From Bigelowiella natans CCMP2755 (lineage: Eukaryota > Protista > Cercozoa): 41,997 nt of DNA. A program made the translations under genes and the position numbers. Where the stretch lies: NCBI GenBank assembly GCA_000320545.1, contig ADNK01003537.1, positions 1-41,997 of the forward strand, in the 5' to 3' direction. This document shows positions 1-38,230 of the stretch, piece by piece (within the stretch, counting starts at the first letter, position 1; every line of letters starts with the position of its first letter). The notes beneath the pieces were generated by a model. The model searched no databases. It saw nothing but the letters and a program-made list of their open reading frames with translations, and was not told the DNA's origin.

Positions 1-19
1 CCTAACCCTGACCCCAACC
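1..19 (+). repeat. Degenerate telomeric repeat units (CCCTAA/TTAGGG type)
   Basis: The window starts cctaa-ccctga-ccccaa-cc, i.e. about 3 CCCTAA-like units. The tract is very short, so support is limited. Confidence 0.55.
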
Positions 20-31
20 GCAAAGTGTTTA

Positions 32-1424
32 GCGTTTTGCGCAAGTGCATGACTCGCTTTGTGCGCTTGAGCCAAGTGCAGCTTGCAAGACTGACACAAA
101 AAGTGAGCCATCTCAAAAACTGGATGATGTTTTTCGACAATTTTTTTGCTCAACCACGTGCAGCTGTCATTGCGCACTGAAATTTTGCTCAATTGAACTT
201 GATCACTTGCACAAATTCTCGGTGTGCGGCACGTTCTGGCGTGGGAACGCACAAATGTCGACAATTTGACACTCCTGGACTCGTTCGACCAGTGATTTCA
301 ACAATTTTCATCACTTTTTGCTGTGCACGCGCAATTCTGAGCATTCGTGCCAACATGAGAGTTGTTTTTGCTTTTTCTTGAAAAAGTGAAAACTCTGATT
401 TCCCAATTTTGCCCAATTTTGAAAGTGCAAAAACTGAGGTGTCTGCTCGAGATTTTGGCGATTTGGGCCCAACCACTTGTGCTGCATGTCAGATGGCTCT
501 TGATCAACAGCTCAGAGGAACAGTTTCCTGCAACTCCCACTAGGCTTGGAGCCAGTTGGAACCAAAGTGCACGAGGTTTTTCTCCTTGCATGGCACGCAG
601 ATGGCTCAATTTTGGGCAATGAAAGTGGAATTTCTCGAAAACTGGAACGAGATTGAACACAAAACTTGCATCACATCGATTCCGTGCACTTGCGCGTTGC
701 TCCTGGCCACGTGTGCGCACACGTCATGGCCCCGCTCTTCACACAGCCCAATGTTGCACGATTTGGGCAAGATGTGATCGATGTGAGCCGTGCCAGCGTG
801 CATGTGATGGCTGCGCGATTGCATGCTCGCATCGTGTGGTCTGCAGAAAACACATGGAGCGATGATTGCATTGCACAGAAGCGCGGAACTCAGTGCACGT
901 GATGCCCACAGCCATGCAAGAGATTGAGTTGTCACCTCGGCTAACGGACATTCGCACACATGCGTCCAAACTAGCAAGTGTGCTGCGCGTTGTGGTCGAC
1001 GGCCACACAAACATTGGATGAAAGCGTCACAAGTGCACTCATTGCACAGCACGATTTGACACGAGTTGTGCAGCGAGGGGCACGTTTCCTTCTTGAAATC
1101 ATGAGCAACTGTTTGCTGTGACATGCTGCCAAGACAGGATTTCATCATCGCATCCATGCACACGTACTTTCATGTTTTGTGCAACACTGGCATTGATCAG
1201 GGTTTCATCTCATCAGACCGTTTTGACATCTCACCATCGGTTCATGGTCACATGATCATGATGAAAACACTTTTTTGACAGTTGCAACGGTGGAATCTGC
1301 TGGTGGTGAACCTGCAGACTTGTTAGATGTGTCGTTCGTCAAGTGTTGCACTTGCGAATCCTTTTTTTCAGACAGCCCTTTCTGAAGGCTTTGGCCCAAC
1401 CGTGCAAGCGATTCCTCCAGATTG
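32..1424. other. TpA-depleted subtelomeric island, probably a degenerate repeat; overlapping ORFs are spurious
   Basis: By hand count there are 5 TA dinucleotides in ~1.39 kb. ORFs in many frames lack Tyr and are rich in His/Cys/Met. Confidence 0.75.
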
Positions 1425-3904
1425 CGTATCTAACGAGAGGGCAGGAATGAGTGGAAGCAACCAATGAGATGATGAATGACAAGAAATGCACCAACTGATT
1501 ACGAAAATGATGTCACTACCTCAGCGTGCATTGTGTCTATCTCTGCTCTGACCTTTGACACGTATTCGGTCGATATGCTCCTACGATTGCAAATTAAGAC
1601 AAGGACATTCAAAAGATTTCGACGAGATAGAGGAGCCTTTGATTGATAGTTCATGGGTAAATAGAAAGATTAATCGTCCTGCTAAAACGCCTTTGAATGA
1701 ATATCATCGGTTTTGTCATTGCCAATCAATGCTTGCACGAAAACAGCTGTACTGATTGGAACATGAAATCATTGTGTATTTTGTGAAGCATCTTCAGTAT
1801 TTGACAGACAGTTACGCACTTGATTTTAGCCTCTTCGTTGTTGTTCTTGTCATTGTTGTTCTCCGTCTGGTTCATGCGAATTCCTCGATGGAACACTGCA
1901 ATGTTTGTTCCTTGGAAAATAAAAAAAAGGGAGGAGAAAAAAAGATAAAAATAATAATTATGACTGACAAGCACCATAAAAGGTAGGTTGAAAAGAGAGC
2001 AATCAAAAGAGAGCAATGACTATAACTTCTACCATAGCCTACTGATAATACCCACCATTCTGACTCGCTGGGAGTTTCATTTGCTGCTGCTGAGTCTTCA
2101 GGGGAGGGATACGACCAACATTCTGTTGTTGCTGTTTTTGCTCCTCTGGAGCTGCTTCCATCTTGCTTGGGAGTATTGAGGGAAAACCTGATGGGGGGGA
2201 AGGTGAAGAAAGGGAAATGATGGTCATCATTGAACAACAAACAAAAAACAATTACGATATTTCATGTGTGTTCGATATGATTACCAAAAGGTTCTAGAAT
2301 GTGTGATATAATGTTTCGCATAGTAAGAATCATCGTTCTCTCTACTCTTTCTGCCGCTACTGTTGCTACATCCAGAGTTGGCTCACCAGTACTATCATCA
2401 TCGTCCTTTAAAGCGCTTTCGCTCTTTCCACCGAAAAGGGCTCCGAGGGCATTGCTGCAGCGGAACACACAGCATACATCAAGCAAATACGATCGTGACG
2501 CATCGAGAAATAAGGTACATATCATAGTTGTACAGTTTTGATCAAGTTGAGCAGACACAAGGTCTCCTCCTGCGTTCGAAGCACACGCCGTGTTTGTCAA
2601 AATTGTGTATATGAAAGAGAAAGGGTGGGAGTTCTTCATCTCGAGACTTAGTTTTCGATATTGTGTCTACCCGAGATCATGGTCGCTCGAGCCCTTCTTC
2701 ATGGGCTGTGGAGGGATTTTGCCATCAATCTTTACCTTGAACTCTTTGCTTGGCGACTTCAATGAGGGAAAATATAATTAGAATGCGACATATTATATAT
2801 TTATACATGAGCATACTCATGCACATTTTATATAAAAATACTAATTGCAGAATATGTGTTTGTGTGTGTGTTAAATCTTTAATAAATCAATTGTTTAGCA
2901 AGGCGTTATATATTAAAGTCGCAGCAGCACACCTTTCCATCCTTGAGTACGTGATACGTGTAGGTCTCCCCTACATCAAGATCCATCAAATGCATCTGAA
3001 GAATAATAATTCGGAGTAGAGGGGGGGAAATTCAAATTAAATGAGTAAATATGAACTACTAGCGAGGATGGCAAAGAGAGACGACGACTGTGGAAGTTGG
3101 AAAGCAGCCTGTCATCATCTGCTGTCTTTCACATTATAATTTCAAACATGTGTCATCACACACACAAACACGCACACACACGCAAGTGCGCGCGATTTTG
3201 ATTCTTCATATATCTATAAATAAAAATATTTATTAAATAATACTAACAGTCATGGTAGAAGAACGCATTTTACTTCCTTATTGGCACATTATCACATACT
3301 ATGGCAGATCCACAATGCTACTACCCCCCCCCCCACACTACTCAAAAGCAGCCACCACCTTGTAAAGCGAGGGACTAGAGATCTCAATGTCCTTTGCGTC
3401 CTTTGTGATCTTAACAAGGATATCGTTTTCTCGGATTCCCTGCAGCAGCACGTATGATGATGACGATGTTTATTTTTTATTTCCATGTTAATAATGTCAT
3501 ACAACAGAAGCAGCATGTGACAAGCTCGATTAGTCTATTTGGAATCCTGCGACTGTACCGAGATGTATGCAGCTGAATTTGGGATGACCTTAGCTACCCG
3601 AACCCTAATAATAAGATGAAAGGATGACCGAGAAATGTTATCATACATGCGTGTAAAACGCCCCCGCCCTTATCCATTGCACATTCGCCAATTTAAGTGT
3701 TGTTTTGTCAAATGTGTTGTTAAAAAAATGTAGTAGGCTAAAAGTAGCACCCGCCGCCGTTCATGTTGGTCCTTTCAACATCAATGCCGTCTACTGGCCA
3801 GAGCATTGGCTTTCCCTCAGTCGCAGCCTTTTTTGCACCAGTGAACGAAGGAAAAAAGTTAATATTTAAGTAACATGATCTCAGCAACCGCATGTACAAC
3901 AGGT

Positions 3905-3905
<1 letters not shown>

Positions 3906-3950
<45 letters not shown>
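3906..3950. repeat. (CT)n microsatellite
   Basis: Direct reading of the sequence. Confidence 0.95.
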
Positions 3951-3952
<2 letters not shown>

Positions 3953-3989
3953 TATAATTATCTTTTGCGCTGCTACTACCTTGATGATG

Positions 3990-5750
3990 GGATGCAGGAG
4001 GTTTGATGGCACAGCGAACGCCACTCCGACGTTTCCTAATGAGCAAAAAATGTTATGAAGAGGGTGGGAAAATAGGATGATGAAGAAGAAGAGGAAGAAG
4101 TAAAAATCACACATATAAATATTAGTAGCAGTTTTAGCAGTTTTGAATTCCAGCGCCGCGCTCATTTTTTGGCATTGAAATCTATTAGAATTTTCTTTTG
4201 TGTTTATGATTCTGTCGTATTATGTGTAGTTTGATACATGTTTTGAAACAATTTAATATATGGTGTTAATGTTCTCCTCCCCTTTCTCCTCCTTTTTAGA
4301 GTAAAAGTAGTAGTAATGGTACTACCTCCTCCTTTGCCAGGTGACACGATAGCCGTGTTGATACCGATTAGTTCCCCGGCGCTGTTGACCAGAGCACCGC
4401 CTATTTGGAAAGTATCATTAGGGATATGATGGAGGAGGAGGAGGGATACTCCTATGACGACGACTAATAGTGGCAATAGATGTCGATCCACCATTCTATG
4501 TTTCTTTATTTTTCCCTTTTATAATCGGCAAGATAAGCAGAATAAAAGTACAACATCATTATCTTGAACAACTAACCGCTCGAGCCGACATTTACAGCAG
4601 CATCTGTTTGCACGTAAGGTTGTCTGAGGCTCTGTTCCATGTCCTCAGTGCTGCTCTTCATAGATGATGCTGAAGCGCCCTCACCATCAGAGGAGGAGGC
4701 ACCACCAGAAAGTGTCTCGCTGTCGTTCATAGTGCGGCCAATGTTGGAAATAAGCCCAGCTAATTAGAAAGAAAGTATACGATCGATATGAAATGTTAGG
4801 ATGTACAACAAAAGATAATCACTGAGGGTACTTGTTCTTTGTATTGCAGGCAGTAGTTGTTTATACCATTACTAATGTCTCGCAAATTGGATTGCTTTGA
4901 CCATTTTTCATTACTTGTGTGCTATTATTCGATGCGATTATTATTTTAGGGTAGTATTTTAGGGTAGTATTATGTACTGAGAAAGATAATCTCACAACCA
5001 CCTGTGACAGTATTATGTAGGCCGAGATTGTTACCAAGAGCAAGCACCACATCCCCAATCTATGCGACGAATGCACACGCAACACGGTATCAACACATAT
5101 TATAGTAAAAGAAAGTTGCTCAGTCATGATATTCAAATTTCTAAAAAGATAGGTTGATGATGCGATCAGAAAATTACCTCAGACTTTGTTGCGTCTCCGA
5201 TCTTGATAGGAGTGAATTCTGGCAACGAAGAGCCATCGATTCCTTCCTGAGTCATTGTAAAGATGTTCAACAAAGTCATTCTTTGTCGTATGGCAGAGTG
5301 ATGATGTGTGAAGCGAGTATCATCACATCGTAACTAAGGAGGAGCTTAGCACCTTCATTTTGAGAATAGCAAGGTCAGTTATATGATCCTTCAGTATCAC
5401 CTGAAAGATTGAACAAAAATTTGTCAGATTGGCTATTTTAAGAATCCTTTGAAATATTTTATTATTGTGGTAAAAGTGGTACGTCTGCTTTGAAGATCTT
5501 CTCCCCGCATGTCTTGACTATGTAACTAACGAATTATTGTGGACGTGCCGCAATTATTTCATTTGTGGCCTTGAAGAAATTTCTTGTTTTTCAAGGGAGG
5601 TATGGATAGGACAAAAATAACGACGAATGTTAAATTGGATATAATTCTCTCTTTTTGCCTCTTCCTCACGTTGCGTTTGCCTCGTCAATGACATGATGGT
5701 TGGTGATAACAAGTCCTCCAGGCGTAATTATAGCACCAGAACCCATAGAT
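3990..5750 (-). CDS. HtrA/DegP-family trypsin-like serine protease, multi-exon host gene (probably extends ~2300-6160; coordinates cover the recognisable protease exons)
   Basis: Minus-strand exon translations: MGSGAIITPGGLVITNHHVI (~5746-5690, catalytic His), TDLAILK (~5380-5360, Asp), YVQTDAAVNVGSSG spliced GT-AG to GALVNSAGELIGINTAIVSPGK (~4615-4335, Ser region), and GNVGVAFAVPSN (~4035-4000). Confidence 0.8.
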
Positions 5751-6364
5751 TTTCTTGGGCTGTTTTGCCTGTAGATGTCATAATTTAAAATAAATAGGGA
5801 TGAGGGCTGAGCTTTACGTATCTAGCCAGCATAAAGTTTGCCATAAATCTTGGATTGCCATACTTGTAGAGGATGCCTACGCCATCAATCTCGATGACAG
5901 AGGAAGTATTTGATGATGCCTCGATAGATACCACAGAACATAGGACCTTCTTGACGATGGGAGAGTAACTGATAAAGAATATTTGGCCCCATATCAGAAT
6001 GGACAACAAAACTGTCCTTCAACTTGCAGCTGCCTACCTGGTTGTAGGTAACGTTGTCATGTTGACGCGCATCGATGCGGAATCGTAGGTACGCGATCGA
6101 AGCATATCTGAATCAACGACCGCAGCTGAGCTCCCAAAATTTAGGGCAACAGCCATGGCGAGCAGGGGGAGTGATGTCATCGAGAGGAGGGGGTTGAGAC
6201 ACGAGGGTGCCAGAGATAATTCAAAAATTGAAAAATTGAAACCAGTTTAGCCGAAAAGATGTTTACAATTAATACCTGTTTTTGACGATGTGAGCCTATA
6301 CGACTGTCGCATCCATCAAATCCCCTGAAATGACAAAAAATGCTGGAAATCTGCAACTCTTTTT

Positions 6365-8160
6365 CTCTTGTTCCAGCCCGTGCGTGCTCCACTCGCTTTC
6401 CCCAATTGGCTTCCCCTTCCCTGTGCGTTCACTGAGTCCTGCTCATTGGTCAAGTGGTTTCTGTTGACGTTTGGTTTTGGGCTGCTCTCTCACCTTCGTG
6501 TGTTCATTTCCCACTTGTTCCCATTCTCTAGTTGGCGGTTGATTGGCTCGTTTCCCTGCTTTCAGCCAGTTTTTCAAGACCTCGCACCTTCGCCTGCCCA
6601 GACTTGAGTGCCGGCTAGTTTGCCAGTTAGTCCTCACTAAAGCTAGTTGGAGGTGCTGCATTTCGTGCATTGCAAGTGTCTTGCAACACTTTGGAAATGC
6701 AATTTTTCATCGTTGTTCATTGTTCATTGCTTGCCGGTTCGTCCGCCAAATCGCCCGTGATTTTGCGCTGACCGTGTGGCAAATCCCATGCAGCCTTTTG
6801 TTCTTCTTGAGCGCACCAATGCTTGCACTCCTCAGTGAATGCGCGTCGCCTGCTTGTGGCTCTAGGGCTGTTTGTCAGCTGTTTGTCAGGTTGCCATGGT
6901 TGTTGATCGAACCTTCCACGTGGTGCCTGGGTTTTGCCGTTTGAACCACAGCACGATGCGGATTCGTTTTGTGGCTCATCTTTCTTGTGCAAGCACTTCT
7001 TTTTCTTTTTTTTTTCTTCTGCCTTCTTCTTTTTCTTCTGCCTTCTTCTTTTTCTTCTGCATTCTTCTGTTTCACATTTCCTCCTCCCCCTCCTCTTCTT
7101 CTTCTGCTTCTTCTTCCTCCTTGGCTTTGCCTTGCCTGGGTTCGAATGCCGTTGGCAAGCACGGTGCGTGATCAGCGTGGTCAGTGATGCGTCCACTTCA
7201 GTTCCACTGAGCAAACACTCACTTCTTCTTCTTCGAGCAAGTGCACGCACAGTGCGTCGCTGCTGCCGCGCACGTGCCGCACCCCACACTTCATTTTTCC
7301 CCACTGTCGGCGGTGGCAAAGATTGCGAAAATGTGCAACATGAAAATTTGCCCACTGACGACCTGCTGCTGAACCAAATTGCTAGAAAGACATGGCAAAA
7401 TCACCTAGTCACAGGCACATCACACACGTCTTTTGTGAAAATGATGACCTTTGTCAATAACGACGCAGCAAAATTAAGATTATCAAAAATCCACAGCAGA
7501 GCGAGCATCGCTGAAAACACTGCAAATGCATGTCATTCTAGCAATGCAGTGTTCAGCAGTAGGTCGTCAGCAGTCAGTAGGCAAAATTTCATGTTGCGCT
7601 TTTTCGCAATTTTTGCTACTGCTGCCGATGGCAGGGAAATGAAACATGGGGTGTGGCACATGCACAGGAGCGTGCTGATGCGCCGCGCCCATGTGGCTGC
7701 CAAGCATTCAATGCAACAAAGGACACATCTAGATGTGTAGTCGAAGCAGTGTGCGCATGCAAGGTTCTGCCATGCATCACACAGAGAGCTTCACATTTGC
7801 CATGCTGAACGCGGGCTTGTGTGCTCTCAGTGTTTGTCAATCGTTGCGAAATCTGCTGTCGCCACGTTCTTTGAATTGGGACGTCAATGAGAAATCACCT
7901 TGTGTGCATGTTCGCAGTGCACAATGCACATCGCATCGCAAGGATAGCGCGCACCTCTTCTCTGCTGACCTGTCGGATCGGATGCACATGTGGTAGAAAT
8001 GATTCAACAAGCGAATGTCTGCCCACACTTCACGCAAATTGTTGAACATGTTGATCAGTGCGTGACGAAACGGTCCAAATAGAACGCTGCTGTGAAGGCT
8101 CATTTTTTCTTCTTCTTCTTTTTCTTTTTCCCCCCTGCTGCTTTGCTAGCGGCGATCGCT
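6365..8160. other. Second TpA-depleted island (degenerate repeat/TE-like) containing a CT-rich low-complexity tract
   Basis: About 20 TA in ~1.8 kb by hand count, about 18 of them in CTA or TAG context. Long Tyr-free ORFs on both strands. Confidence 0.7.
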
Positions 8161-8239
8161 GCCACGATCGGCGGCACGTCTACTTTCAACTCCAGACCTT
8201 TTTCAATTGCGACGAATGAGAAATCAGCCATAATTCTAG

Positions 8240-9026
8240 AGATTTTTGTTAGTTGATACCTGGACGTCGTCTCAGGGGAGCGGGAGGTTCCGGTTTCTCA
8301 ATAAGTGGCTTCGCCGGAGCAGGAGGGTTGAAGTCAGGATTAGTTTTCGCTTTTTGCTCGTTGGCGAGATTCTTCTTAACCCGGAAGTGGTTCTCCGACG
8401 TGATGTAACTGATGGTGATAGTACAACATGTGAGCTACGAATCCATTCAGTGGATAATTTGCTGCTGTCTAATTTTAGTGTTCACAGTACATGCTCCATC
8501 ACCTATAATATTCTGGGGAAATCTTGGACAGGATTTTGTCTATCATAGCACCAGGGCCACTGTTGAGCAAATATATCATGTTAATAAGCCATTTAAAATA
8601 ACTAGTCCTATCATCACCATAGATTACAATCTTTGTGAGGATGTAAATATATCATCGGTGGACTTACGAATCTCCTTTTTTGCCCTTTTTCCCCTTCTTC
8701 TTTGCCTTCTTAGGTTTCTTGGGCTTCTTTTTTTTCCTACACACCATCAATAGAAATGTAGTAAGATAGGAGATTGTACTCCTAGTATCTCCTATCCCCC
8801 ATATCATATTTCAATTACTATACTATTACCCTTTAGCGTCGTCTTCGCCTTCTTTTTTGCCACCTCCCATAATGAGACCCACATCAAAAGTTTTCGCTTC
8901 CATTTCCTTAAGAATCTTAAAAACAGAGAGAAACATAATCATGTGAATGTGTATGTGAGGAGTATTTTATTCAAATGGCACAATTAGTCGTAGCGTTGTC
9001 GTCGTTAATTCTACACCCCGTACTCA

Positions 9027-9074
<48 letters not shown>

Positions 9075-9931
9075 TCTCTCTCTTCTCTAACATTTCGTAC
9101 CACATGGGATTGATTCATCCCATTACCTCTTCTGTCATTTTCCCTTCCTTTAACAAAACTTCAGTGCCCACGTCCTTCCGTCTGGGGGTCAAACGCGCCA
9201 AATTCTCCTCAATCTGGTCTATACGCGGGTGATTCTTATGGACCTAACACAGAAGCAACATTGAGACATGACTGTTCGCCTACCCTTTTGGCAAGGAAGA
9301 AACAGTTCCATGACACGTACATGCATGTCTATACCCATATGAATCGATGCAAACGCAACAACCTTATCGAGCATCACACTTTTGGACGCTTTGAAGTATA
9401 TCCAGGCATTGTTGTATTCGTTGAGGGAGAAGTAGCATGATCCAATGTTATTTAGTGTGGTTGCCATATCCACATACCTCATTATCATAAAAAAAAGAGT
9501 AAGTCGAAGAAGATTCAAATGAAGAAACTTGATGAGCGATACGACGATGGTTCCAACTTTTGTAAATGAAGCAAAAGAAAATTTCGGAAAATAATCTAAC
9601 AAATTTAGATCAGCATACATAAAACAAATCTTCTAATACGTACTCTTGCTCTGAATCAGAGAGGCAATGATACCTAACAATAGACAGTACACGTTACTCT
9701 CATCACACTTTTGTGATTATAGCATTGTATCATCATTGCATCCAAGTACATGTACAAACTCATAGACAAGCACAAGTTATTGTTAATTTACATATTTTAA
9801 ACAAATAGTAATATTTGCGGTAGAAAGAACATTGTAACAACGACCGTATGATTCTAGCAGCATTGAAGCATTTCAGGGCCAAACTATATTTGTTCAGGTG
9901 GAATAACGAAGTGCCTGACGCACACACACAA

Positions 9932-9992
<61 letters not shown>

Positions 9993-11124
9993 TATTTGCG
10001 TATACTGTTCATCTTTCATGGTAACATATACCGAATATCGGTAAGCACAAAATTCATTAATAGACCCTCATGCTTCTATTTTTTGACTACATGAACCACC
10101 TAGTACCTATGTTGGAGAAGAGGATGGCTGATAACGGCTGTTTGTGTTGATCCAATGACAATGTCAATCACATTAATTACATATATGGGAAAAGAGTGGT
10201 GCACAAGCTCCTACTTACAATAGGCTACGCTATTCTTATTAAATATGTAAAGTAATTGGTGCATAATTTTGTAATTATTACGTGGGGGGCAAATGAAGTT
10301 TTGAATTCTTCATCAACAGCCCTCTTTCGCATATTGGCGGCATCTTCCACCTCCTGCATGCCCTGTAATCAATAATGATCAAGTCAAGACAACATTATAC
10401 GTCAGGCTCTCTCGCTGCCTAAAGTACACGATTAATACACCGACTACCCGAAATGCCTTGATGAAATCCTCCTCACTCTTAAATTCTACAGATTGGTCAA
10501 AGTCAAATTAATTCCCGTGTGTGTGCACCATATTGTATGTATGCAAAGCGCTTGAGTAATGTGTTACAGCAAGTAGTTACATAGTGCAATTCTAGTACTA
10601 GGGAGAACTACAGAGTATTACCTGAAGGCCTCTGCATTGATGCTGCGAAGCTGTCAGTCATGGTTGGCCAAGTACGGTCTATTTATGAAAAATAACAGAT
10701 ACAAAAAAGCATCGATGACAAACAAATAAAGGGGAGGAGAATGTATTTATTTAAGACGGGGAGATGTGGAGAAAAATTACAGCAACGGCTTATTAATTGA
10801 TCTATTTGTTATATTTTGACTGTATTCGCTAATACTATCATTGACATGTTGATGCTACCTTCTTTTTCTTTCTTCGTCTCTTCCACGGCCGCAGATCCCT
10901 CTATAATAGTAGGTGCGAAGCAAAAAACATGGAAATTATCAGCAACTCATAGACCATGTGCGCATCACCATGGTTTTTTATAAATGTCAAATAACAGCAT
11001 CCATTCAATCTTGGTTCTTGTACAAAAAAAGGTAAATACCCGCAGTTTCTTTGATTCCATAGGTCTGGGTGTCAATGTTAGCTGCGATATTAAGTAGACA
11101 ATCAACAGCGACGACAATGTTATC

Positions 11125-11159
<35 letters not shown>

Positions 11160-12223
11160 GCGCGTGCGCACACACGCAGACACACACACGCACGCACGCA
11201 CGCACATGCTCGAACACACAAACACTCTGACATGCAAGGAAGGAAAGAGAATTATATGGAGATAAAGGGTGCAGCAAAATTTATGAGAAAACATTATGAT
11301 AACATGGATTACAATGAATTATTACCTAGTTCTAAATACTCTGCCCAACAATCCTTGGCCCTCCAGAAACAAAAGAAAGCTACCCGATCCTGATGCATAC
11401 ATCTATAAATATGTACGCACTAATAGACTGACTGATTGACTGACTGGCTGATATATAAACATATTTTAAATACCTTTCCCATTGAAGTAAAGATGCTTCC
11501 TAGGGAACTCCAAAAGTAGACTACGAAAGCTGCCCTACGGGAGGAGTTCGGGTGGTATGGGTGAATGGGTTATTCCCTCATTGATGTTGTGTCCACATAA
11601 CATATGCGCAAATATGCGCATACATAGTTTTGATGAATGCATGTCGTAAGCGTATATCTTGTCTGAATAAGAAGAAATATTCATCCATCTATACCTTTCC
11701 CCGACGCATGAGAAAGATATAGTCGCTTGAATTCATATTTGTTATTTGTGAATTTATTATTGTAATATATTCTAGTCATTATTACTCTGCCACAAGATGT
11801 TTATTCTCCAAGCCTTCCAGAGTGTCGCACTCGAAGAAGTAGTTAGGACCCTCTGCTTCTGCATCATCCTCTTCCTCTAATTCATCACAACCCACAGCCA
11901 TCTCTTCACCAACTATTTCTTTCTGAACACCCTAAGGAATATGAAAGCAGAGACCAAATGAGTATCACCGCACTCAAAACCTTGGGTGGTAGCGATATAG
12001 GCACATCATATCTCGTAGCAATCATTTGTCGTCGTCATCATAATAATCATTTCCTAATCCTATATGTTGTTTAAAGAGACCTTAACATTTTCATCTTCTT
12101 CTCCGACGACTACCACTTTTTCTTCCTCTTCTCCCTTTAAATTCATTACACACAATTACATCTTGGAGATACAATCAAAGGCAACCGTTGCCGTTAAGTA
12201 AGTTTATACGTGCACATATGTTG

Positions 12224-12260
<37 letters not shown>

Positions 12261-12713
12261 CATACACACACAGGTTACTATAGATCACTTTCTCCTCCTC
12301 TTCCCCAGGAGTAGGCACATTTCTCTCAGCCTCTGCAGCAGCTTCGGCCTCTTTCCTCTCTTTGGCTTCGGTTTCCCAGTGGATACGCGCCCGGCACAGC
12401 ATATCTATGGCATCGAGGCACTTTCCCCTGCTCTGAAGCCGCATCGCCTTCACTAACAAGCGTGACAAGTCTGTGGAAGCTTTCAACTCGCCGAAGCTTT
12501 GGGGAGGTATGGTTACCTAGACGGGAAAATAAAACTGTTCTAGGGATAACGATTTATGCACAAGCTTTTACATAATGGACCGGAAGAGCGAATGAAGCAA
12601 GACACAAAGAAGAGAAGATCTTAATTACTCTCCCGCATAACCCATACCTCTCTAATAAGTGTGGCACTTCCAGGAGTTGTTTCAAATGAATTAGGCTGTG
12701 TTGCCTGACAAGC

Positions 12714-12785
<72 letters not shown>

Positions 12786-13700
12786 GCATTTATGCACGGG
12801 AGAAGCTATCAATTTGAAAAGATGTATACGCTGTATTGTTTCTAGATGCTATTAAGTGTCGAATGCTTTGCCACTTTATCATCTGGAGTGGAATCAACGG
12901 CAGCTGGAAATTCCAAACGATTGAGACAATCAAGCATAGAGTTGAAGTCGTTCTCGATCCTGAATGTGGTTCGAAGGAACATTATGCATGCAAATAGTTA
13001 ATTTGTCTCCAGGATTTTTTCAACAAAAGATAGATACTTACTGTTCCTGTTCCTCGATGTCATCATCTTCATTGCCACCTTCCATAGCGTTATCTGTCGT
13101 AATTTTTAATTCTCATACGTCATAGAAACCTCCCTAGTATCGCTCAATCAAAACCACACTGAGTTTCTCTGGCCAGATAATGTGATTACAATGGGGTGTG
13201 GTACCAAAATAAGTTTTTCAGTTGTCAAGAGAATGTTATTTTAAATCGGCCAACAAGAAACGAGGCAGGGGGAAGTTACTCATCATCGTGGTATTGGTAA
13301 CGGCAACAAGTTTCCAATTTTGCTCATCAATAGAAATCTAGCCACACTGAGTGAATATCATTGTCGTAGATTTGGAATTTCATGCTTTCTTGCAATATTC
13401 TCATCTTTGCTGCCTTTATCATTTGATATGGATATTTCCTGTATGTAATTTAGCCGTCTTCTGGAAGATAGCTGTCGATTTAAAGTAGATGGTATTCAAA
13501 AGGACGACACGATTTACATGTTGTCGCGCATGTAGAAACTGTTACGTAGTAACTACTTGAGAAAACAGCGAATCATCCAAACTCCTGCTTGCTCCTCCTG
13601 ATCATCTATCCTCTCCTTAGATCTAGATCTAGTTTTTGAGTTTTTACACGAAAGAAGACTGGGCCAAAGACAACTTAATTTCCATCTACATCTACACAAG
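8240..13700 (-). CDS. TPR-repeat-containing protein, multi-exon host gene (boundaries approximate)
   Basis: Exon fragments YVDMATTLNNIGSCYFSLNEYNNAWIYFKASK, GTSLFHLNKYSLALKCFNAARIIR and LLVKAMRLQSRGKCLDAIDMLCRARIHWE are TPR-like. Many GT..AG introns contain microsatellites. Confidence 0.6.
9031..9082. repeat. (TC)n microsatellite
   Basis: Direct reading of the sequence. Confidence 0.95.
9921..9992. repeat. Compound (CA)n(GA)n microsatellite
   Basis: Direct reading of the sequence. Confidence 0.9.
12718..12777. repeat. Compound (TA)n(TG)n microsatellite
   Basis: Direct reading of the sequence. Confidence 0.9.
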
Positions 13701-14259
13701 GAGGAAAAATGTCAACAATAGCAGAGGAGGAGCCTGACCGTGAGTGATGCAAAAAAAAAAAAGAAGCTCAACCACAATCGATTAGCGAACTGATATAACA
13801 ATGTGGATGCAAAATTTGATATAATCAAATTAATTCACATAGACAGAGATACATTACGAAGATTTTTTTCTTTCTTTTTTGAAGAACCTACTTAAGGGAG
13901 AGAGACATTGATTAGTTCTGGGCAGTATGAAACATTTTGTTTGGGTTTGAGAATTCATTCTTGTTCAATTGTTAACAGTGAAGGATATATTGCTGGACGA
14001 GCAAATTCGAAGATCACGGATGAGCACCTTCGATATCATACTTATTGTTGTGACGACTGTAATTGTGAGTAACTTTTCCCCGTTAGTTCTTTCATTAACT
14101 ATTGTACTAACTAAAGCATATCATGGTGTTGAGGCTTCGCATTTATATTTGTATTTGTTGATATGTGCTACTCCTCATCCTTCGCATGTTAGTTTCCATT
14201 TATTGATATCATACTTATCATTCTACATAGATGTATGGGCGCATTATGTGTGATCTATA

Positions 14260-15280
14260 CCTTGCGGGACTTTACGCAGCTGGCATAAGTTCTGACCAAA
14301 TCCGTGACGAGTTTGAAGTAGTACCAAAATCTAACCGTTCTACTTACTTCCTCCACCTTCAAACGCCGCACAAACTGCTAAGTCTTTTGCGATTATTCAT
14401 ATAACATGGCATTCATGAGAAAGCTGACGACATTAAGTAATTTATAAAGAATAACAATCATTACGATAGATAATAGGATATATATAACGTAGGCGGCAAG
14501 AGATTCGTTTGGAACATTCATTATCTTGTTGTTTCCTGGAATTTTCAATATGGTCAACTCTTTATACCTACGCACACCTGAAGAATATGCAGAAGAATTT
14601 AGGGTAAATCTACTCCAATAATTATATATTAAAGGCTGCACACTTAATGAAGTAGCTATTAGCATCATAAGGCCTGACGTGTGTTCCTGCTGTCATGGTT
14701 TGTGCGTGCGTGCGTGCGTGCGTGCGTGTGCGTGTGTGTTAGAAACTGGTTGCGGACAACAGCTTGTACGAGATTCCCATCCACATCCCTGATGACTTCA
14801 CTTACGTTGAGTGCACTCGTTTTCAAAGGATATGCTGCTGTGGAATAAAATGTGTACGTAAACGATGTGATGATTATCATCTGCTTATAATATATCATCT
14901 ACTTCTAATAATCGTTATGAAACACCATTGAAGACGATGATGTACTACAATGCAATGATACTATTTTTGCATGTCGTAGACATCACTCATGTTGGCTCGT
15001 CTTTAGTACAATCTCATTTCCATTTTTCTGTGCTCCCGTATTTACCTGAATAGTGTTGCTGTGAATAACACGATTGTTATGATGTGGTAACTTTAGTGTG
15101 AGGCATTGGGTGACAAAATTGCACTGCAAGTAATGAACTTGCTACAGATCCGAGGTGCATATGACATGCTCGTGTCAATTTTCAAACTCCAGAGAGTAAC
15201 AGGAGCATGGAGAAACGCTGTGGTACTATTTTAAATAACAAATAGTAGCAAAGTTGTTTTTGTGCGGGTAGTTTCTAGTG

Positions 15281-15316
<36 letters not shown>

Positions 15317-15550
15317 TAGTAGCAGCAGCAGCAGCAGTGGTGATAGTAGTAGAAAAAGAAGAACAAGTAGTGGTAACACTAATAAGGGTTCGTTTATGCT
15401 AAAGAGTGTTTGCTCAAGCACACCCATCACAATGATCAATAGCAAACAAAGCATACGTGCACTCATTGTTTTGAATAACTAGCTACCTCACCTTCGTTTG
15501 GAGCTTTCAATATATTTTTCCTCCTTTTCCGATTGTGATCTACATGCATG
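14260..15550 (-). CDS. Possible multi-exon host gene of unknown function
   Basis: Short coding-like segments (e.g. AAYPLKTSALNVSEVIRDVDGNLVQAVVRNQ) next to splice-like sites. No recognisable domain. Confidence 0.25.
15282..15336. repeat. (TAG)n/(CAG)n trinucleotide microsatellite
   Basis: Direct reading of the sequence. Confidence 0.9.
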
Positions 15551-17797
15551 TAACTATTTTCATAATTGAAATGTTGTAGTAATTGCCAACGAATTAGTTG
15601 TAAAGCAAATGTCACCTCATCCATCTTTCTTCCAAACCCCCCCCCTTCTCCTCCTCCTCGATTTTGCTCTTTATATTTGTACCATTAAGATGTTTTCGGT
15701 TGCTACTCACGCAGTCCCTCAAGTCTTCCTTCAGTGCTTTCTCTTCTACTTCAAGTTGTCATTTATTGAGACGCACTTTTCTCTGATGCAACATTATCGT
15801 ACATTTTGAATGAATGAAACCACAGAAAAACAAGCACCATAAATTGATATCAAAACAATGTACCATGAATTGTTGTTCATATTTTGATAACAATGACAAC
15901 CATGGCAGCACATCTACGGAAGAGGATGAGTTAATTGGCTATAGTTTGGCCCTGTGGTATGCTCAGTTAGGTATGTATTGCAACTGACTTGTTCTCAGCA
16001 GATGTCCTCCCAACGAAATGATGATGATGCAAGAATGAATGGATCCACACACAGGTTCGATAATCCTAAACGGCATCGGAATTGTCCTTGCTCCGAACCA
16101 TAGCCCTGCATTCGACTACGCATATGCAATACCGGTAGGAGTAGTAGATGAGGAAGGATAGATGTTACAACTTGTCGTTATTATTTGTGTGATACTGACA
16201 CAATGGTGATAGATTTGACCTGACGACGAGATGACACCTCTTTCGTTAAACAACTGTTGTCATAGGGGATGAACGTTCATGAAGGCGATATTTCAATCAG
16301 CGAGAAGTAAGTAATCACGCATTTGCCGATCATAAGCATGGGAGTGCTGATACTGATGGTGGTGGAAACATTTTTATTTTGTCATGCCCGTTTGTTAGGC
16401 CTGTACATGATGGCGACCAAAAGTCATCGATGTCAAAAGGAGACAGCTTGATGATGGATGACGTTGATGGGAAAGACACTAAGCACGATACTAAGCACAG
16501 TTTTCGCAAGAAGTCGTCAAAAGGAAAGGTGAAGAGATCTATCTGTTGATGATCATGGTGTGGACATGATTTGTGCTCTTTGTACATTTTGAGAGAATGC
16601 AATGTTGCCGATCCAAAATAGAGGCAGAAATCAATTTGGTAAATGATGGCACGTGTAGGTGGAATCCTCCTTGCCAGACATCAAAGAATGATACTCGCAG
16701 CACAAAGACGCAGTCATTTCAAAGCGGAACTGGAAGTTTGGCATAAGCGTAGGGAATGGCAATGTGGAATTGATGGTGCATCTTGCGGTGCGATCAGTGC
16801 GTACACGCAGCACGCAGCACGCACAGGGAACACTAGTCCCAAAATGCATTGTCATAGAGGCTTTTTTGGCATCAAGTCAATGCTCAATCATTTTGGAGTC
16901 ATCATGTGCATTTTTAGCATGACTAGCAGATGCCTGAAAAATGTTTTTTAGCTTTGGAAACCTGATCAAAACCATTTTCACCGTGATGCGAAGCTTCTAG
17001 GATGAGATTCAGAACGAAGCTTTCGGCTCAGAATGTTAGCATGAAAAAATTTAAAATTTCATTGTTCTGACATGGCAAGGTGACAAAGAGCGTTGCTGCG
17101 CGCGCGTGACGGCGTCCTGTACGTGATGGAGACTGTACAGACTGCACGCATTTATCTACTAGATCTAGCTGCACGGACACAAGTCGACTGAATCTACCGG
17201 TTGTTGTCATGTAGCATGCACACATCAAAACTGATAAGAGAAATAGCACTTTTTTATGCACCAACACGCTGCTGCAATAATGGCCGGTAGCCATACATGC
17301 CGACTGAACACAATGTTCAATGTGTGCATGGGGTGAGCTTCATCGAGGCACGCTCCGATGCATCATGCATCGAGCTAGCGAGGTGCATCGCAGCATCGTA
17401 GCAGTGTGGTCACCTTGTGGTGATATGACAACCCCGTTTAATGAAGTCAGCATGGTGTGTGATGTATAAGTAATAATAATAATAATTATTATAACCGCCA
17501 ATGGCGGTATCTGCGATGTGGGCAGAGCCCACCTGCTCGCAAAGCGATGCGACAGCATTATGCGACTGTATCATTATGCTGTATCATATTACCTTATTAT
17601 ACTTATGTTTCCCAGGGGGTGTTTTCCGGGGGCGGGGGTTATATATATAAAGTATGTAAGTATTTTAATATATATATATATATATATTAAAAAGTTTGGT
17701 TTTTAAAATGCCCCATAAGCCCTCATTAGTTATAAAATGAATGAGGTTAGAAAAAAACACTAATTAAAGTGGGGGTCTGAAAAAAAATGAAGAAGCA

Positions 17798-17960
17798 TAC
17801 GATGTCATTATATGCGATGTGCTATGCCGTGCGAAGCGATATGCCGTGCTATGTATGTATGTATGTTGCGAAGCGATATGCCGTGCTATGTGCCGTGCCG
17901 TGCGAAGCGATTTGCGGTGCTATGTGCCGTGCTATGCGACTGCTGACTAATATGCGACTG
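17798..17960 (+). repeat. Degenerate minisatellite (ATATGCCGTGCT / GCGAAGCG / GCGACTGCT units)
   Basis: Repeated tgccgtgcta and gcgaagcgat units; related tracts at 18661-18815 and 33066-33300. Confidence 0.8.
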
Positions 17961-18652: not shown

Positions 18653-18660
18653 AAAACAGT

Positions 18661-18815
18661 CACATATGCCGTGCCGAAGCAATATGCTGATAAATATGCG
18701 ACTGCTATTACGAAGCGATATGCGACTGCTATATGCGACTGCTATTACGAAGCGATATATCGTGCTAATACACTGCCATTACAAAGCAATATACTAATAG
18801 ATATGCGACTGCTAC
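18661..18815 (+). repeat. Degenerate minisatellite (ATATGCGACTGCT units)
   Basis: Four atatgcgactgcta copies plus attacgaagcgata x2. Confidence 0.8.
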
Positions 18816-19161: not shown

Positions 19162-20553
19162 CTACATAGCGATGCGAAGATACTCCCCAGATTTGAGACG
19201 ATTACTACCATCACTCCCACCAACAGCAAACAGTTTGCCATCCCCAACAGCCACACCCAACCCACTCCTCACAGTATCCATATCAGGCAGTTTCTTCCAC
19301 CCCGCACCCACATTCTTCAAATCCAGATACTCCCCAGATTTGAGACCCCACCCACCATCATACCCACCAACAGCAAACAGTTTGCCATCCCCAACGGCCA
19401 CACCCAAACCACTCCTCTTAGTATTCATCTCAGGGATTTTCGTCCACCCCTTCATCTCCAGTAATTTTCGTTGTCGCTCTGCTTTTTTCCTCCTTCTTTC
19501 TGCTTCTTCTTTCTTCCTTCTTTCCGCTTCTGCTTTCTTCCTATTTTCTGCCTCAATGTGCGGTCGAATATCCACCGATTTGTCCACTGTGAGGTCGTCC
19601 AGTCTCTCGACGATGTAGGCACTCACCAGCATCTCAGCTTTATGCTTTCCTTTTTTCATCCTGCCTAGCAATCGCTTCCTTTTGAGTTCCTCAGCGATTA
19701 GATTGTGCTTTCTTCCTTCGTCGTTGATGTCTGCCTCCTCATATTCATTTCTGAGTCGTGTGATTTCTTCAGTGGTCTTGTTATACAGAGTTTGAATAGA
19801 ATCCGACAACTGAATTTCCGCTTGGGCGACCGCAGTTATAGTTGCTTTGTCCCCACACTTTCGCAAGGAGGAAAGACTGTGCCCTGTGAAGGATACCCCT
19901 TCCACTATGACACTTTCATCGCTCAACTGAGACACAACTGATATTTTCCCATCGTTGAATTTGTATTTCAGCACAAATTTTGTGTCATTATGCTTGAAAA
20001 CATACTGCTCCGTCGTAAGTTTGTAATCGACTTTCAAACTCTTCTGACCATTCACAATTTCCCGAGCATCCCTTAATTTGCTACAAACTTTCCTTCCTTC
20101 CAACATGTCGGTAATTTCCTTGATTTTCTTGCGATGTTTTCCCAAAATGTCTCGCTGGGTCATAATTTCACGGATTGTGTCTCGCTCCTCGCACTCACCA
20201 TCCAACCCTTCGTCATCCTCTCCTTCATCGCTTTCTCCACCTTCAATTTCATTCTCCAGTTTCCTCAATTGAGTCTCACATTTGGACATATCTTCCTCTC
20301 GCTTCTTCAACTCGTGTTTCAAATTTTCTTTCCAACACTTCAGATGATTTTCTAGTTGCTTCACTTTCTCGCTCACAATCTTGTCTTTGTTGCTCGTTTG
20401 ATTCCCAGAAACAAAGAAAGTCGCAGTGGATCCACGGCTTGTCGAATTTTCGGGGCCACCAATGCCTGAAGCATTCGACACTTTCTTTCGCCTCTTGTTT
20501 TGTCTGTAGCTCACTTTCCAATCATCTTTTCCCAAGAATTGTGACACAGACAT
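19162..20553 (-). CDS. Coiled-coil protein with about two C-terminal Kelch repeats (truncated propeller)
   Basis: 463 aa. 49-aa repeats MxTxRSGLGVAVGDGKLFAVGGxDG..LKSGEYL; 147-bp DNA period. More GC-rich than its flanks. Confidence 0.8.
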   Translation of the reverse strand: MSVSQFLGKDDWKVSYRQNKRRKKVSNASGIGGPENSTSRGSTATFFVSGNQTSNKDKIVSEKVKQLENHLKCWKENLKHELKKREEDMSKCETQLRKLENEIEGGESDEGEDDEGLDGECEERDTIREIMTQRDILGKHRKKIKEITDMLEGRKVCSKLRDAREIVNGQKSLKVDYKLTTEQYVFKHNDTKFVLKYKFNDGKISVVSQLSDESVIVEGVSFTGHSLSSLRKCGDKATITAVAQAEIQLSDSIQTLYNKTTEEITRLRNEYEEADINDEGRKHNLIAEELKRKRLLGRMKKGKHKAEMLVSAYIVERLDDLTVDKSVDIRPHIEAENRKKAEAERRKKEEAERRRKKAERQRKLLEMKGWTKIPEMNTKRSGLGVAVGDGKLFAVGGYDGGWGLKSGEYLDLKNVGAGWKKLPDMDTVRSGLGVAVGDGKLFAVGGSDGSNRLKSGEYLRIAM

Positions 20554-20670
20554 TGTCCTTCCTGATGCTTGATGTCACCAGTCTACACACAGACACAACC
20601 TTCTCTGGTCCTGATTTAGTCACAGGTGTGGAGAGTCTCCAGAGTCTGTTTTCCAAAAAATACATCCAAC

Positions 20671-21994: not shown

Positions 21995-22171
21995 ATGATA
22001 AAGTTAATATATGAATTAATCGTAAATTTACTGCCTGACAATTTTACAACATACAGGAATGATGATGCTGTTGTGGTTTATGACAGGTCAGTGTGGAAGA
22101 TGGAAAGCAGGGACGATGCTATCTTATTGATTAAGAAGAATATATGTAATATGTCAATAATAAATTGTTAA
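21995..22171 (+). CDS. Small hypothetical protein, 58 aa (not in the ORF track)
   Basis: MIKLIYELIVNLLPDNFTTYRNDDAVVVYDRSVWKMESRDDAILLIKKNICNMSIINC*; fills the intergenic gap and is followed by a hairpin. Confidence 0.55.
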   Translation: MIKLIYELIVNLLPDNFTTYRNDDAVVVYDRSVWKMESRDDAILLIKKNICNMSIINC

Positions 22172-22271
22172 TATATATTTATTCCAGATTTCATTTTCAA
22201 CACATTCAACCCTCTTGAAGGTGTTGAAACACAATATTAAATTAAATATAAAAATATATAGTATAATATAT

Positions 22272-23231
22272 ATGAATAGTATACTCAAAGATGTTGACAG
22301 AACTTCTCTCTTTCCAATCAGGCACAAAGACATATGGAATGCCTACAAGATACAACAAGCAGGATACTGGACCGCTGAAGAAATAGATTTCAGTAATGAT
22401 GCCGATGACTTCTCCAAATTAAGTCAGGACGAACAAAAGTATTTAAAATATACCCTTATCTTCTTTGCGAATAGTGATATTGAAGTGAATGAAATGATAA
22501 ATAGGAATCTATACGAGGAGTTTAAGGCATTAGAAATTCGTATGTGCTACGACTTTCAAAGGCAAATGGAAAATATACACACAGAAACATACAATCTACA
22601 GATAGATACTTTGATAAAAGATAAAAAAGAGAAAGAGGATTTGATAAATGCTGTAAAGAATAATCCTATCATAGAACAAAAGATTAACTTCTGTAGGAAA
22701 CAGGTCTTGTTATACAACTCCATACAGCATAAATTGATATGTCAGGTCATCTTTGAAGGCATATTCTTCGCTTCTTCGTTTGCTTGTATTTACTACTTCA
22801 AGCAGAAGGGTATATTGAAAGGTCTAACTTTATCTAATGAGTTTATCAGCAGAGATGAGAACCTACATTATAGTTTCAGCATTATGCTATACAATAAGTT
22901 AGAGAAGAGACTATCACAAGCAGAAGTAGCGGTGTTGTTTGATAAGGCACTATGTATTGAGCGAGACTTCATCACACAAGCATTGCCTGTTAGATTGTTA
23001 GGAATGAATGCGGATATGATGTTAGACTATATCAAATTCACAATAGACAACATATTACTCAAATTAGGTTATGATACAATCCACAATGTGAGTAATCCTT
23101 TGACCTGGATGGAAAGACTGGATTTACAAGGCAAGACCAATTTCTTTGAGAGTAGAGAAAGCAACTACCAATCCGCTAATGTATTAAACGAGAACAAAGA
23201 AGACATCTTTGAAGTAGATTTAAATTTTTAA
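22272..23231 (+). CDS. Ribonucleotide reductase small (beta/R2) subunit, class Ia
   Basis: WTAEEIDFSND, FFANSD, MENIHTETY, EGIFFASSF, NEFISRDENLH and KTNFFE motifs. True ATG at 22272. Confidence 0.96.
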   Translation: MNSILKDVDRTSLFPIRHKDIWNAYKIQQAGYWTAEEIDFSNDADDFSKLSQDEQKYLKYTLIFFANSDIEVNEMINRNLYEEFKALEIRMCYDFQRQMENIHTETYNLQIDTLIKDKKEKEDLINAVKNNPIIEQKINFCRKQVLLYNSIQHKLICQVIFEGIFFASSFACIYYFKQKGILKGLTLSNEFISRDENLHYSFSIMLYNKLEKRLSQAEVAVLFDKALCIERDFITQALPVRLLGMNADMMLDYIKFTIDNILLKLGYDTIHNVSNPLTWMERLDLQGKTNFFESRESNYQSANVLNENKEDIFEVDLNF

Positions 23232-24008: not shown

Positions 24009-25832
24009 TTATAATAACGAAGAGAGTTTCTTTTTCATTCCGCCACCACTTACGGATGCTTTACCTCCCATCTTTTTCTTGAGCACATTTGCTCCCATTT
24101 TAAGAACGGCATCTTGAACTTTAGGATTAGAGGCAATATTTTTCACAGTTTTCCCAACTTTAGATGCTAAACTGCTGAAGAACCCTGAACCGACTAATTT
24201 GTTTTCAACATCACTTCCTCCAAATTGTGCTGATAATACATCCTGTTCTGTAATAAGGTTCTTAACAATCATAGAAGAACCTGCTACAGTCTTGAAAAAT
24301 CCTGATTGAGGGGTCATAACTACAAGTTGAAGGTTTGGAATAGCAACATCACCCATTGCTGTAGGTTTCATACAGGTTGCTTGGAGTTGTAGTGTGTAGT
24401 TTCCAATCACACCTGGTGCTTGAGAAGGGTTTAATTCAATATCTTTACCCATTTTAGCAATGACGAACCCACCGCTCGTGTGGATTTTTCTGCCTTTACT
24501 TCTACTGCTTCCAATATAGGTGTGGAAATCAATTTCTAATCCATTATCATAACTCATCTTGTATAATTTATCCACAGGCATTGTGTTTAAAAGACCGCTT
24601 CTGTTATCAAAGGTAATGTTTAAATTTGTGATGGGAAAATAGAATTCGTTTTCGGTCGCATCATATGTTGTTTTCTTAACAGCAATAATTAAACTATCAG
24701 GGATACTTGGTAATGTTATGGTGGATGATAATATGGTTTTACTGTTGTTTATCCCTTGAGGAAAACCATTACTATCAATAGTTCTATATGTAGGAAACTC
24801 CATATATGGGACAATATTTTCAGGACTGACTTTGAGGTCTAAAGCAGGAGTTAAATACACAACATCTATATAACTTTGTAAAAATGGTCCTGGTTTATTC
24901 GCTAATGTAACGAATTCTGCTCTACAGGTTATAGCACCTGCTTCAGCACCGATTCTGTTTCCATCGTAGCAGACTGCTCTACTTGGGTCTTTGAAATTGA
25001 TTTGGAGGGTAGCATTATTAACACCGTATAAACCTACACTATGATAATTCTCAGGAACATAGCATAAAGGACTAATCATAAGTTTCTCTTTGGATGTAAA
25101 TTTTAGGAAAAATTTATATTCTGCTTGGACTTGATTTCCAACTGCTCTTGCGACTGGTTCGCCATCTACATATGGATAAGCAACACCACCTATGTTCACA
25201 TTTCCATTAAAGTTGTCCGCTAAAACATTGCCATTTTCATCTACAAAGTTCACATCAAAATGTGCTCCATTCTTGTGGTAGAATTTATCGCCGTCAAAGA
25301 ACCCAGTAATACTATTATTGAATGCTCCTTTGCCTTCGCTATATTTTCCATAAGGTGATAAATAGGAAGGGCAAATCGCACTGCTACTATCATATTTTGG
25401 GTCAGTAGTCATTAGAAGCAACTGCTCGTTAATGGATTGGTCTAAATTGGTCGTAGATACTGTATCGTTGATTTGTAAACTCATTGTGGAAACCATTCTG
25501 TGTAAAGGGAAGTTGTTTAAGGATAAGATTTCACTTAAGGTTGCGATTTTAGCACCGGCAGCAGGGTTTCCATCCACACCAAAATCAACAGTAGTCTTAA
25601 AATCACCTCTGTTTAAGGTGACTAAAAGGGTGACCTCGGAGGTCCAGTTTATCTTTCGGTCAACGAAGACATTTAAAGAAGGTATGGTAATGTTATAGTT
25701 TTGATTACTCGCACTTGCGGATAAGGATTTAATCTGTTTGTTATTGACTGACATAGAACTCTTAGAGATTTTGTATTCAGGTGGTAACTGAACTGTTCTC
25801 GCATCATAAACTGCTTTCTTACTTAAATTCAT
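24009..25832 (-). CDS. Virophage major capsid protein (double jelly-roll)
   Basis: 607 aa. NITIPSLNVFVDRKI, FPLHRMVSTMSLQIND, LMISPL, TITLPSIPDSLII, ITNLNITFDNRSGLL and APGVIGNYTLQ segments; Gly/Lys-rich C-terminal tail; adjacent to the penton gene. Confidence 0.92.
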   Translation of the reverse strand: MNLSKKAVYDARTVQLPPEYKISKSSMSVNNKQIKSLSASASNQNYNITIPSLNVFVDRKINWTSEVTLLVTLNRGDFKTTVDFGVDGNPAAGAKIATLSEILSLNNFPLHRMVSTMSLQINDTVSTTNLDQSINEQLLLMTTDPKYDSSSAICPSYLSPYGKYSEGKGAFNNSITGFFDGDKFYHKNGAHFDVNFVDENGNVLADNFNGNVNIGGVAYPYVDGEPVARAVGNQVQAEYKFFLKFTSKEKLMISPLCYVPENYHSVGLYGVNNATLQINFKDPSRAVCYDGNRIGAEAGAITCRAEFVTLANKPGPFLQSYIDVVYLTPALDLKVSPENIVPYMEFPTYRTIDSNGFPQGINNSKTILSSTITLPSIPDSLIIAVKKTTYDATENEFYFPITNLNITFDNRSGLLNTMPVDKLYKMSYDNGLEIDFHTYIGSSRSKGRKIHTSGGFVIAKMGKDIELNPSQAPGVIGNYTLQLQATCMKPTAMGDVAIPNLQLVVMTPQSGFFKTVAGSSMIVKNLITEQDVLSAQFGGSDVENKLVGSGFFSSLASKVGKTVKNIASNPKVQDAVLKMGANVLKKKMGGKASVSGGGMKKKLSSLL

Positions 25833-33064: not shown

Positions 33065-33065
33065 T

Positions 33066-38191: not shown

Positions 38192-38230
38192 TATATATTT
38201 AAAGATTTATCTCTTATATATATATAATAT

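Follow-up and report, generated by a model that had tools for sequence, protein, structure and literature searches.

A TpA-depleted island between two genes of Bigelowiella natans as a probable product of targeted A:T-to-G:C mutation, with adenines before guanine apparently spared

The cercozoan Bigelowiella natans changes A to G and T to C at a rate raised about 1000-fold, in all cases at TpA (Mettrop et al., bioRxiv 10.64898/2026.01.13.699255). Two targets are described as hypermutated, namely an integrated giant virus and a provirophage of 25 kb situated where a scaffold ends. The preprint reports 231 de novo TpA changes and 124 TpA-poor, CpA/TpG-rich clusters across the genome, proposes the ADAT2-like deaminase Bn78255 as a candidate, and itself compares the process with fungal repeat-induced point mutation (RIP). 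A literature search on this process returned no report besides this preprint. Its main text does not mention the flank rule described below: 'CTAG', 'TAG', 'trinucleotide' and 'context' have no matches in it.

The window, by which we mean the whole stretch of 41,997 nucleotides analyzed (contig ADNK01003537.1), contains an island poor in TpA and rich in CpA and TpG (Table 1). Of 20 window proteins compared exactly with a protein collection, four are present in it, in clusters whose named members come from B. natans, and the best hit of the capsid protein is a B. natans model at 99%. As TpA hypermutation has been measured in the same species, the process behind the island is already known, and we regard the island as a fresh case of it to which the flank rule adds something beyond that paper's main text. 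With rho values of 0.20 for TpA and 1.54 for CpA+TpG, the island passes the preprint's window cut-offs (0.43 and 1.52). As in other hypermutated DNA of B. natans, TpA appears to have given way to TpG and CpA on both strands, and TA/TG/CA differences separate repeat copies (CA/TG splits at 6654-55 and 6666-67, and differences between the arms of an inverted repeat). In its layout, the preprint's second hypermutable region, the provirophage at a scaffold end, resembles the right part of the present window. The preprint defines a cluster as at least three consecutive 1-kb windows, so the island of about 1.8 kb falls outside the cluster list while still fitting the process. Unlike the published targets, the island is not viral so far as the tests reach; it is also close to saturation and extends into a host 3' UTR. 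We take the direction of mutation from the preprint and from composition, and infer that TA is the ancestral state of the island's CA and TG sites. We give a probability of about 70% to the reading that a targeted A:T-to-G:C mutator of the host rewrote the island's TpA to TpG and CpA while sparing A before G.

Table 1. Features of the window that bear on the island (positions within the 41,997-nucleotide stretch)
Feature	Positions	Strand	Observations
Chromosome-end zone with the same signature	1-1430		
Left-hand host gene, 5' exons	5200-6156	-	Three CT..AC joints in X15; start at about 6156 by eye
TpA-depleted, CpA/TpG-enriched island	6365-8100		Left edge between 6300 and 6365
Faint spliced RNA over the island	6447-7506	+	GT..AG joints 6447>6531 and 6887>7158
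Repeat core A	6630-6730	+	X1 summed contig depth up to 53,000 vs about 50 alongside
Longest TA-free stretch of the window	6865-7382		
Pyrimidine-rich low-complexity tract	6990-7120		
Inverted-repeat arm 1 (repeat core B)	7262-7394	+	X1 summed depth up to about 8,400
Inverted-repeat spacer	7395-7528		Other copies: X1 summed depth 500-700
Inverted-repeat arm 2	7529-7671	-	
Right-hand host gene, 3' UTR	7878-8100	-	Spliced X15 contig from 7878; X21 depth 12-14
Right-hand host gene, last exons	8100-9400	-	Five CT..AC joints, open frame
Partly converted zone adjoining the provirophage	16630-17450		
TA-rich provirophage	17950-41997		Sputnik-type major and minor capsid, rve integrase, D5 primase, ATPase, RNR small chain

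Between 6365 and 8160, 21 TA remain of the 107.5 expected from base composition (rho 0.20, Poisson p = 2e-24), and the rho of CA+TG is 1.54. Eighteen of them stand in a CTA or TAG context (CTAG 9, GTAG 4, ATAG 2, TTAG 1, CTAA 1, CTAC 1), against 8.3 expected if TA is dealt randomly over the island's 360 TA, CA and TG sites (p = 1.1e-5). Measured against the host flanks, the share is 17/20 in 6365-8100 versus 329/952 (Fisher p = 6e-6). The context bias of the surviving TA is solid, and the island also holds CTAG at 4.6/kb compared with 1.8/kb in host DNA. These counts agree with the first-pass annotation, which had noticed about 20 TA with about 18 in this context, a TA-free stretch of about 500 bp, and ordinary TA content in the flanking genes; the significance of the survivor context, which it had asked to be checked, holds as well. 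In the host flanks, the observed/expected ratio of TA is 0.52-1.08 per 500 bp. The products are balanced between CA and TG, at 200:220 and, counted within the island, 99:113. The only three TA outside CTA/TAG, at 7458, 7475 and 7481, lie inside the inverted-repeat spacer, crowded into 25 bp. This clustering was observed post hoc and may reflect a loop of single-stranded DNA, an insert that arrived late, or chance.

Two DNA and two RNA-type sequencing runs were aligned to 5200-9200 at a likeness of at least 80%, and the summed contig depth obtained in this way is not a copy number. Most of the island lies at flank-level depth, meaning that it is single-copy at 80% likeness, and the exceptions are three short stretches, namely core A and the two arms of the inverted repeat. 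The copy-number check suggested at first pass, carried out here by read depth, thus supports two high-copy cores but not a repeat over most of the island. Core A has many diverged genomic copies, with a single alternative letter carried by up to 80 contigs. Some copies close with a short, variable-length tail of the TTCATTG type, past which their flanks are unrelated, and others return in tandem; the family's RNA is mostly one-stranded (X21 first mates 31.6 on the plus strand vs 1.9 on the minus strand). Core A may be either the 3' terminus of a retro-element that is transcribed or a UTR motif held in common; a search with its motif gave no matches in metagenome contigs and none in viral contigs.

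The inverted repeat spans about 410 bp. Its arms are 74% identical over 143 columns (E = 3e-19), both end close to a CTAG, and 7255-7680 folds as one hairpin (z = -15.7). Arm 2 retains three TA, all in CTA/TAG, where arm 1 has TG or CA. Relative to the flank, summed depth is about 160x in arm 1 and about 10x in the spacer, which again are not copy numbers. In another genomic copy, core A is fused straight onto arm 1 (6701>7296), and cores A and B are therefore likely one family. The most fitting description of the island is a decayed, non-coding repeat relic together with adjoining unique DNA, where the repeat origin applies to the cores and the rest is mostly single-copy at 80% likeness.

Both neighbouring genes are spliced and lie on the minus strand. 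The right-hand gene has its stop at 8100-8102 after a poly-lysine tail and extends further right. Its 3' UTR is single-copy, expressed and TA-depleted, with three TA that are all TAG, and the TA depletion wanes within about 150 bp beyond the stop codon. The first-pass placement of the island between two host genes is therefore right for the most part, but the right-hand gene contributes its 3' UTR (7878-8100) and the end of its coding sequence (8100-8160). At 8147-8260, within this gene's last exon and intron, most of the TA left are CTA/TAG or splice signals and the first unprotected TA is at 8231; the mutated domain may reach slightly into this gene. The faint spliced RNA over the island consists of X15 contigs of depth 2-8 and one X21 read, and has no open frame, with stops in all three frames. 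In a Pfam search of 45 frames, no family above cut-off and no transposon protein was identified for the island; with 64 further host frames added, Pfam named neither host gene and gave one TPR_1 match below cut-off. An Rfam search over 1-17700 gave five matches, all below the gathering score and none in the island.

The signature recurs elsewhere in the window. The window starts with telomere-like CCTAAC, and 20-1430 contains 7 TA vs 94 expected, five of the seven in CTA/TAG (p = 0.034). At 16630-17450 there are 32 TA vs 59 expected (rho 0.54), CA+TG has a rho of 1.56, and CTA/TAG accounts for 18 of the 32 TA compared with 11.1 expected (p = 0.005). Both zones had been named at first pass, the second as a weaker version, and both descriptions hold. 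Unprotected TA is about zero at 1-1400, normal at 1400-6300, about zero at 6400-8200 and normal thereafter. Because it flips so sharply between near zero and normal, the depletion is a patchwork, and this alternation along the window rules out a telomere gradient; the earlier suggestion of local targeting is borne out by the normal values at 1400-6300 between depleted zones. Self-comparison, whether of the unaltered sequence or after collapsing CA/TG to TA, revealed no homology among the three regions, namely the chromosome-end zone, the island and the weak zone at 16630-17450. A stretch inside the provirophage (19900-20600) is also TA-poor, with 15 TA of which five are in CTA/TAG and hence no such bias; this is probably coding composition and not the mutator.

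The survival of TA is graded by its flanks. In the island and the chromosome end taken together, TA makes up 5/425 of the TA, CA and TG sites with no blocking flank, 12/210 of those with one, and 10/27 of those in CxxG, where the corresponding shares in host DNA are 0.32, 0.38 and 0.33. With the assumption, made in all fits, that the island began with host-like TA/CA/TG shares, survival is about 4% with no blocking flank, about 15% with one, and complete at CTAG. A product rule, in which one-sided survival is the square root of unprotected survival, puts the expected number of one-sided survivors at 15; the observed number is 12. Log-likelihoods (lnL) are -6.0 for the rule acting on one strand, -26.8 without context and -64.9 for a duplex DTAH motif, and the latter two are rejected. 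A rule that spares YTAR is also rejected, given that TTAA survives once against 38 products while CTAG survives 10 times against 17.

These values argue strongly that one neighbour shields its own strand only. TpA is palindromic, so a site can be lost through either of its two A's, and CTAG, which is TAG on both strands, is thus the sole fully resistant site. NTAG and CTAN would be lost at about half the rate, one of the two A's being shielded. The survivors look strand-symmetric because a one-strand rule acts on both strands. The first-pass annotation had proposed a strand-symmetric, enzymatic exclusion; the graded survival speaks against a symmetric motif, and an enzymatic origin is likely.

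Which neighbour does the shielding, the G 3' of A or the C 5' of T, was assessed with models of equal parameters. The base after A explains the data better than the base before T, by 9-12 lnL (11 in the island and 9 in the island plus chromosome end), and is preferred in 92% of 300 block bootstraps. Median fitted rates are 2.1 for TAC, 1.9 for TAT, 1.05 for TAA and 0.25 for TAG. TAG would yield TGG, which shows hardly any gain (observed/expected 1.11 vs 0.97), in contrast to TGC (2.50 vs 1.33). The two models tie in the weak zone at 16630-17450, and a direct test of products at one-sided sites is not significant (108:90 vs 253:254, p = 0.28).

Variation between copies was assessed in 40 of 81 variant rows listed, with six rows in the low-complexity tract left out. 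Seven clear TA-bearing copy sites occur among these 40 of 81, all in CTA/TAG; five vary between TAG and CAG and two (7353 and 7375) between TAG and TGG. In the same 40 of 81 rows, the two G-TA-C sites at 6654-55 and 6666-67 are split into CA and TG between copies. The CTAG at 6644 reads CCAG in about 37% of summed depth, and some copies may retain GTAA at 6684. As the copies share ancestry and were aligned only at a likeness of at least 80%, these site shares are not independent events.

Proteins of the provirophage and its paralogues offer a further comparison. We used 15 paralogue proteins of six genes from the same species, dropped patches with more than four changes in 21 residues, and kept 98 distinct differences, which carry no direction and may predate integration. 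Among 46 transition-type differences, 25 are of the TA/TG/CA type (29% expected, p = 3e-4). G follows the affected A in 1 of these 25 (16% expected under a non-synonymous null, p = 0.07) and CT precedes it in 4 (17% expected, p = 0.58). Taken together, the G after A is favoured over the 5' base as the blocking neighbour by about four to one. With this moderate support for 3' over 5', the relative rates would be TAC ~ TAT > TAA >> TAG.

The converse assignment, in which a C two bases 5' of the A spares CTA or both neighbours count, is unlikely. Survival counts by themselves are the same under the 3' and 5' readings, and 7353, 7375 and two of the three arm differences go TAG to TGG, the direction that a 3' rule would spare; 8% of bootstraps also prefer the 5' base, and the weak zone favours neither. 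It fits worse by 9-12 lnL, however, five copy sites among the 40 of 81 rows listed go TAG to CAG, and in the paralogues the A of CTA is affected at the expected rate (4/25) and the A of TAG below it (1/25). Equally unlikely is a thymine chemistry with the same targeting, in which the T of TpA would be modified (for example to 5-hydroxymethyl- or 5-formyluracil), pair with G and change to C, the T after C being spared. 5-Formyluracil mispairs with G, and T>C leaves the same sequence scar as A>G on the opposite strand. Enzymatic 5-hydroxymethyluracil linked to transposon silencing is reported in dinoflagellates (PMC11572971). Against this stand the ADAT2-like nature of the preprint's candidate, Bn78255, and the top context TAC, which is the natural TadA target as UAC or UACG according to excerpts of PMC12027372 and PMC12296453.

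Explanations that dispense with sparing by the mutator are less probable still. TAG and CTA could have been remade by C>T decay of methylated CAG and CTG in silenced repeats, and it fits this improbable scheme that TAG/CAG is the commonest polymorphism between copies (among the 40 of 81 variant rows listed) and that CTAG is denser in the island than in host DNA (4.6/kb vs 1.8/kb). Regeneration alone predicts TA in CxxG at about twice the one-sided value, but 6.5 times is seen (likelihood-ratio test, p = 0.0035), and CTG/CAG is enriched rather than depleted (observed/expected 1.30 vs 0.97). Slightly more improbable is that the survivors are motifs under selection in active master copies, with CTAG as a binding or end motif, and not a preference of the mutator. 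Several survivors are indeed located within the high-copy cores or close to them, and a CTAG stands by the end of each arm, but the bias extends to the single-copy 3' UTR (3/3), the chromosome end (5/7) and the weak zone (18/32), the last two of which have no detectable homology to the island. That the island is a single-copy expressed gene with TA-avoiding codon usage is hardly credible. Its stop-free frames of 277 and 227 aa are long, as expected after the loss of TAA and TAG, and the faint spliced RNA that spans part of it is stopped in every frame; X21 depth is 0 at 6808-6941, Pfam gives no match above cut-off, and the depletion occurs in all frames as well as in the UTR and the inverted repeat. 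On this point too the first-pass annotation, which had set the island apart from such a gene, is upheld.

For the preferred reading, a host mutator that spares A before G, the most likely route follows the preprint. A TadA/ADAT-like deaminase would make inosine in the DNA of silenced or repeat-marked chromatin, replication would copy the inosine as G, and a G following the A would hinder deamination. The mutated domain may have spread into the adjoining 3' UTR, or the UTR may have been recruited from the relic. As a tentative proposal, for which the odds are below even, we suggest that B. natans possesses a natural adenine deaminase that acts on DNA at the motif 5'-TAH-3' (TAC and TAT best, TAG refractory), that it is steered to dispersed repeats and viruses, perhaps by inverted-repeat hairpin RNA such as that of 7262-7671, and that its action extends into unique DNA as far as an expressed gene's stop codon. 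The flank rule, with TAC and TAT acted on, TAA less and TAG hardly, provides a fingerprint for an enzyme search, and a natural A-to-G editor of DNA, if true, is of interest to builders of base editors. In the island, the process would have run to its end state, both on a repeat that is not viral and within a host 3' UTR, which indicates a reach beyond integrated viruses.

The provirophage has several features of its own. Four-base sites are avoided over 18000-41997 (observed/expected): GATC 2/67.5, CATG 7/70.6, CTAG 6/57, GTAC 6/51.9, TCGA 10/74.5, TGCA 21/119, AGCT 14/79, AGCC 4/25.5 and CGGG 1/8. Many of these match the sites of chlorovirus-encoded restriction enzymes, which hints at restriction pressure from a giant-virus helper. 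The avoidance leaves the provirophage nearly without the mutator-resistant CTAG. At 36668-39604 and 24012-25832, this copy has the CA/TG state for 16 of the 25 TA-type paralogue differences, as if it had taken more mutator hits than its paralogues. The ribonucleotide reductase small-chain gene (22272-23231) is near invariant across ten cluster members, and the major capsid protein has no relative in the viral contigs. An inverted pair of 114 bp (22159-22272 and 40927-41040, 79% complementary) brackets about 18.6 kb of the provirophage, and minisatellites are located at about 17810-17950, 18660-18810 and 33060-33290.

The inverted repeat at 7262-7671 resembles a miniature inverted-repeat transposable element (MITE). 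It is short and non-coding, has long inverted arms and many related copies, and thus shows the terminal inverted repeats and lack of coding capacity that characterize these elements. No target-site duplication was fixed for 7262-7671, where the outer ends fade in the alignment of the arms, and it is not known to have a transposase partner. Given the joint between core A and arm 1 in another copy, the unit that holds it may be larger than a MITE-like element.

RIP converts C to T at CpA/TpG and thereby gains TpA; it is premeiotic, is triggered by homology, and needs RID or DIM-2. The island is like RIP in that its transitions are local, specific to one dinucleotide and present on both strands of repeat DNA, and in its sharp edges at genes. 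It is not a case of RIP, for it differs in direction, losing TpA and gaining CpA/TpG, and in that much of it is without detectable duplication.

With RNA editing of the ADAR and fungal ADAT type, the island shares that A is read as G and that U/T is favoured 5' of the A. The 3' preference of ADAR1 is G > C ~ A > U, and editing in Fusarium prefers UAG and UAA, as given in the excerpt of PMC4817773. Here TAG is the least affected (0.25 vs 1.05-2.1) and TAA is next, and the sparing of TAG speaks against the ADAR analogy on the 3' side. The changes are moreover in DNA and on both strands, in contrast to ADAR. A retro-copied edited RNA, which would leave a one-strand A>G scar, is rejected by the balance of CA and TG in the island (99:113). 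TadA provides a closer comparison. Excerpts of PMC12027372 and PMC12296453 state that its natural target is UAC(G), that on RNA TadA8.20 edits UAG well, and that TadA-8e has no clear 3' preference. Engineered TadA8 does not spare UAG on RNA, whereas TAG is the least affected here; the island is alike in its preference for TA/UA and in having TAC as the top context.
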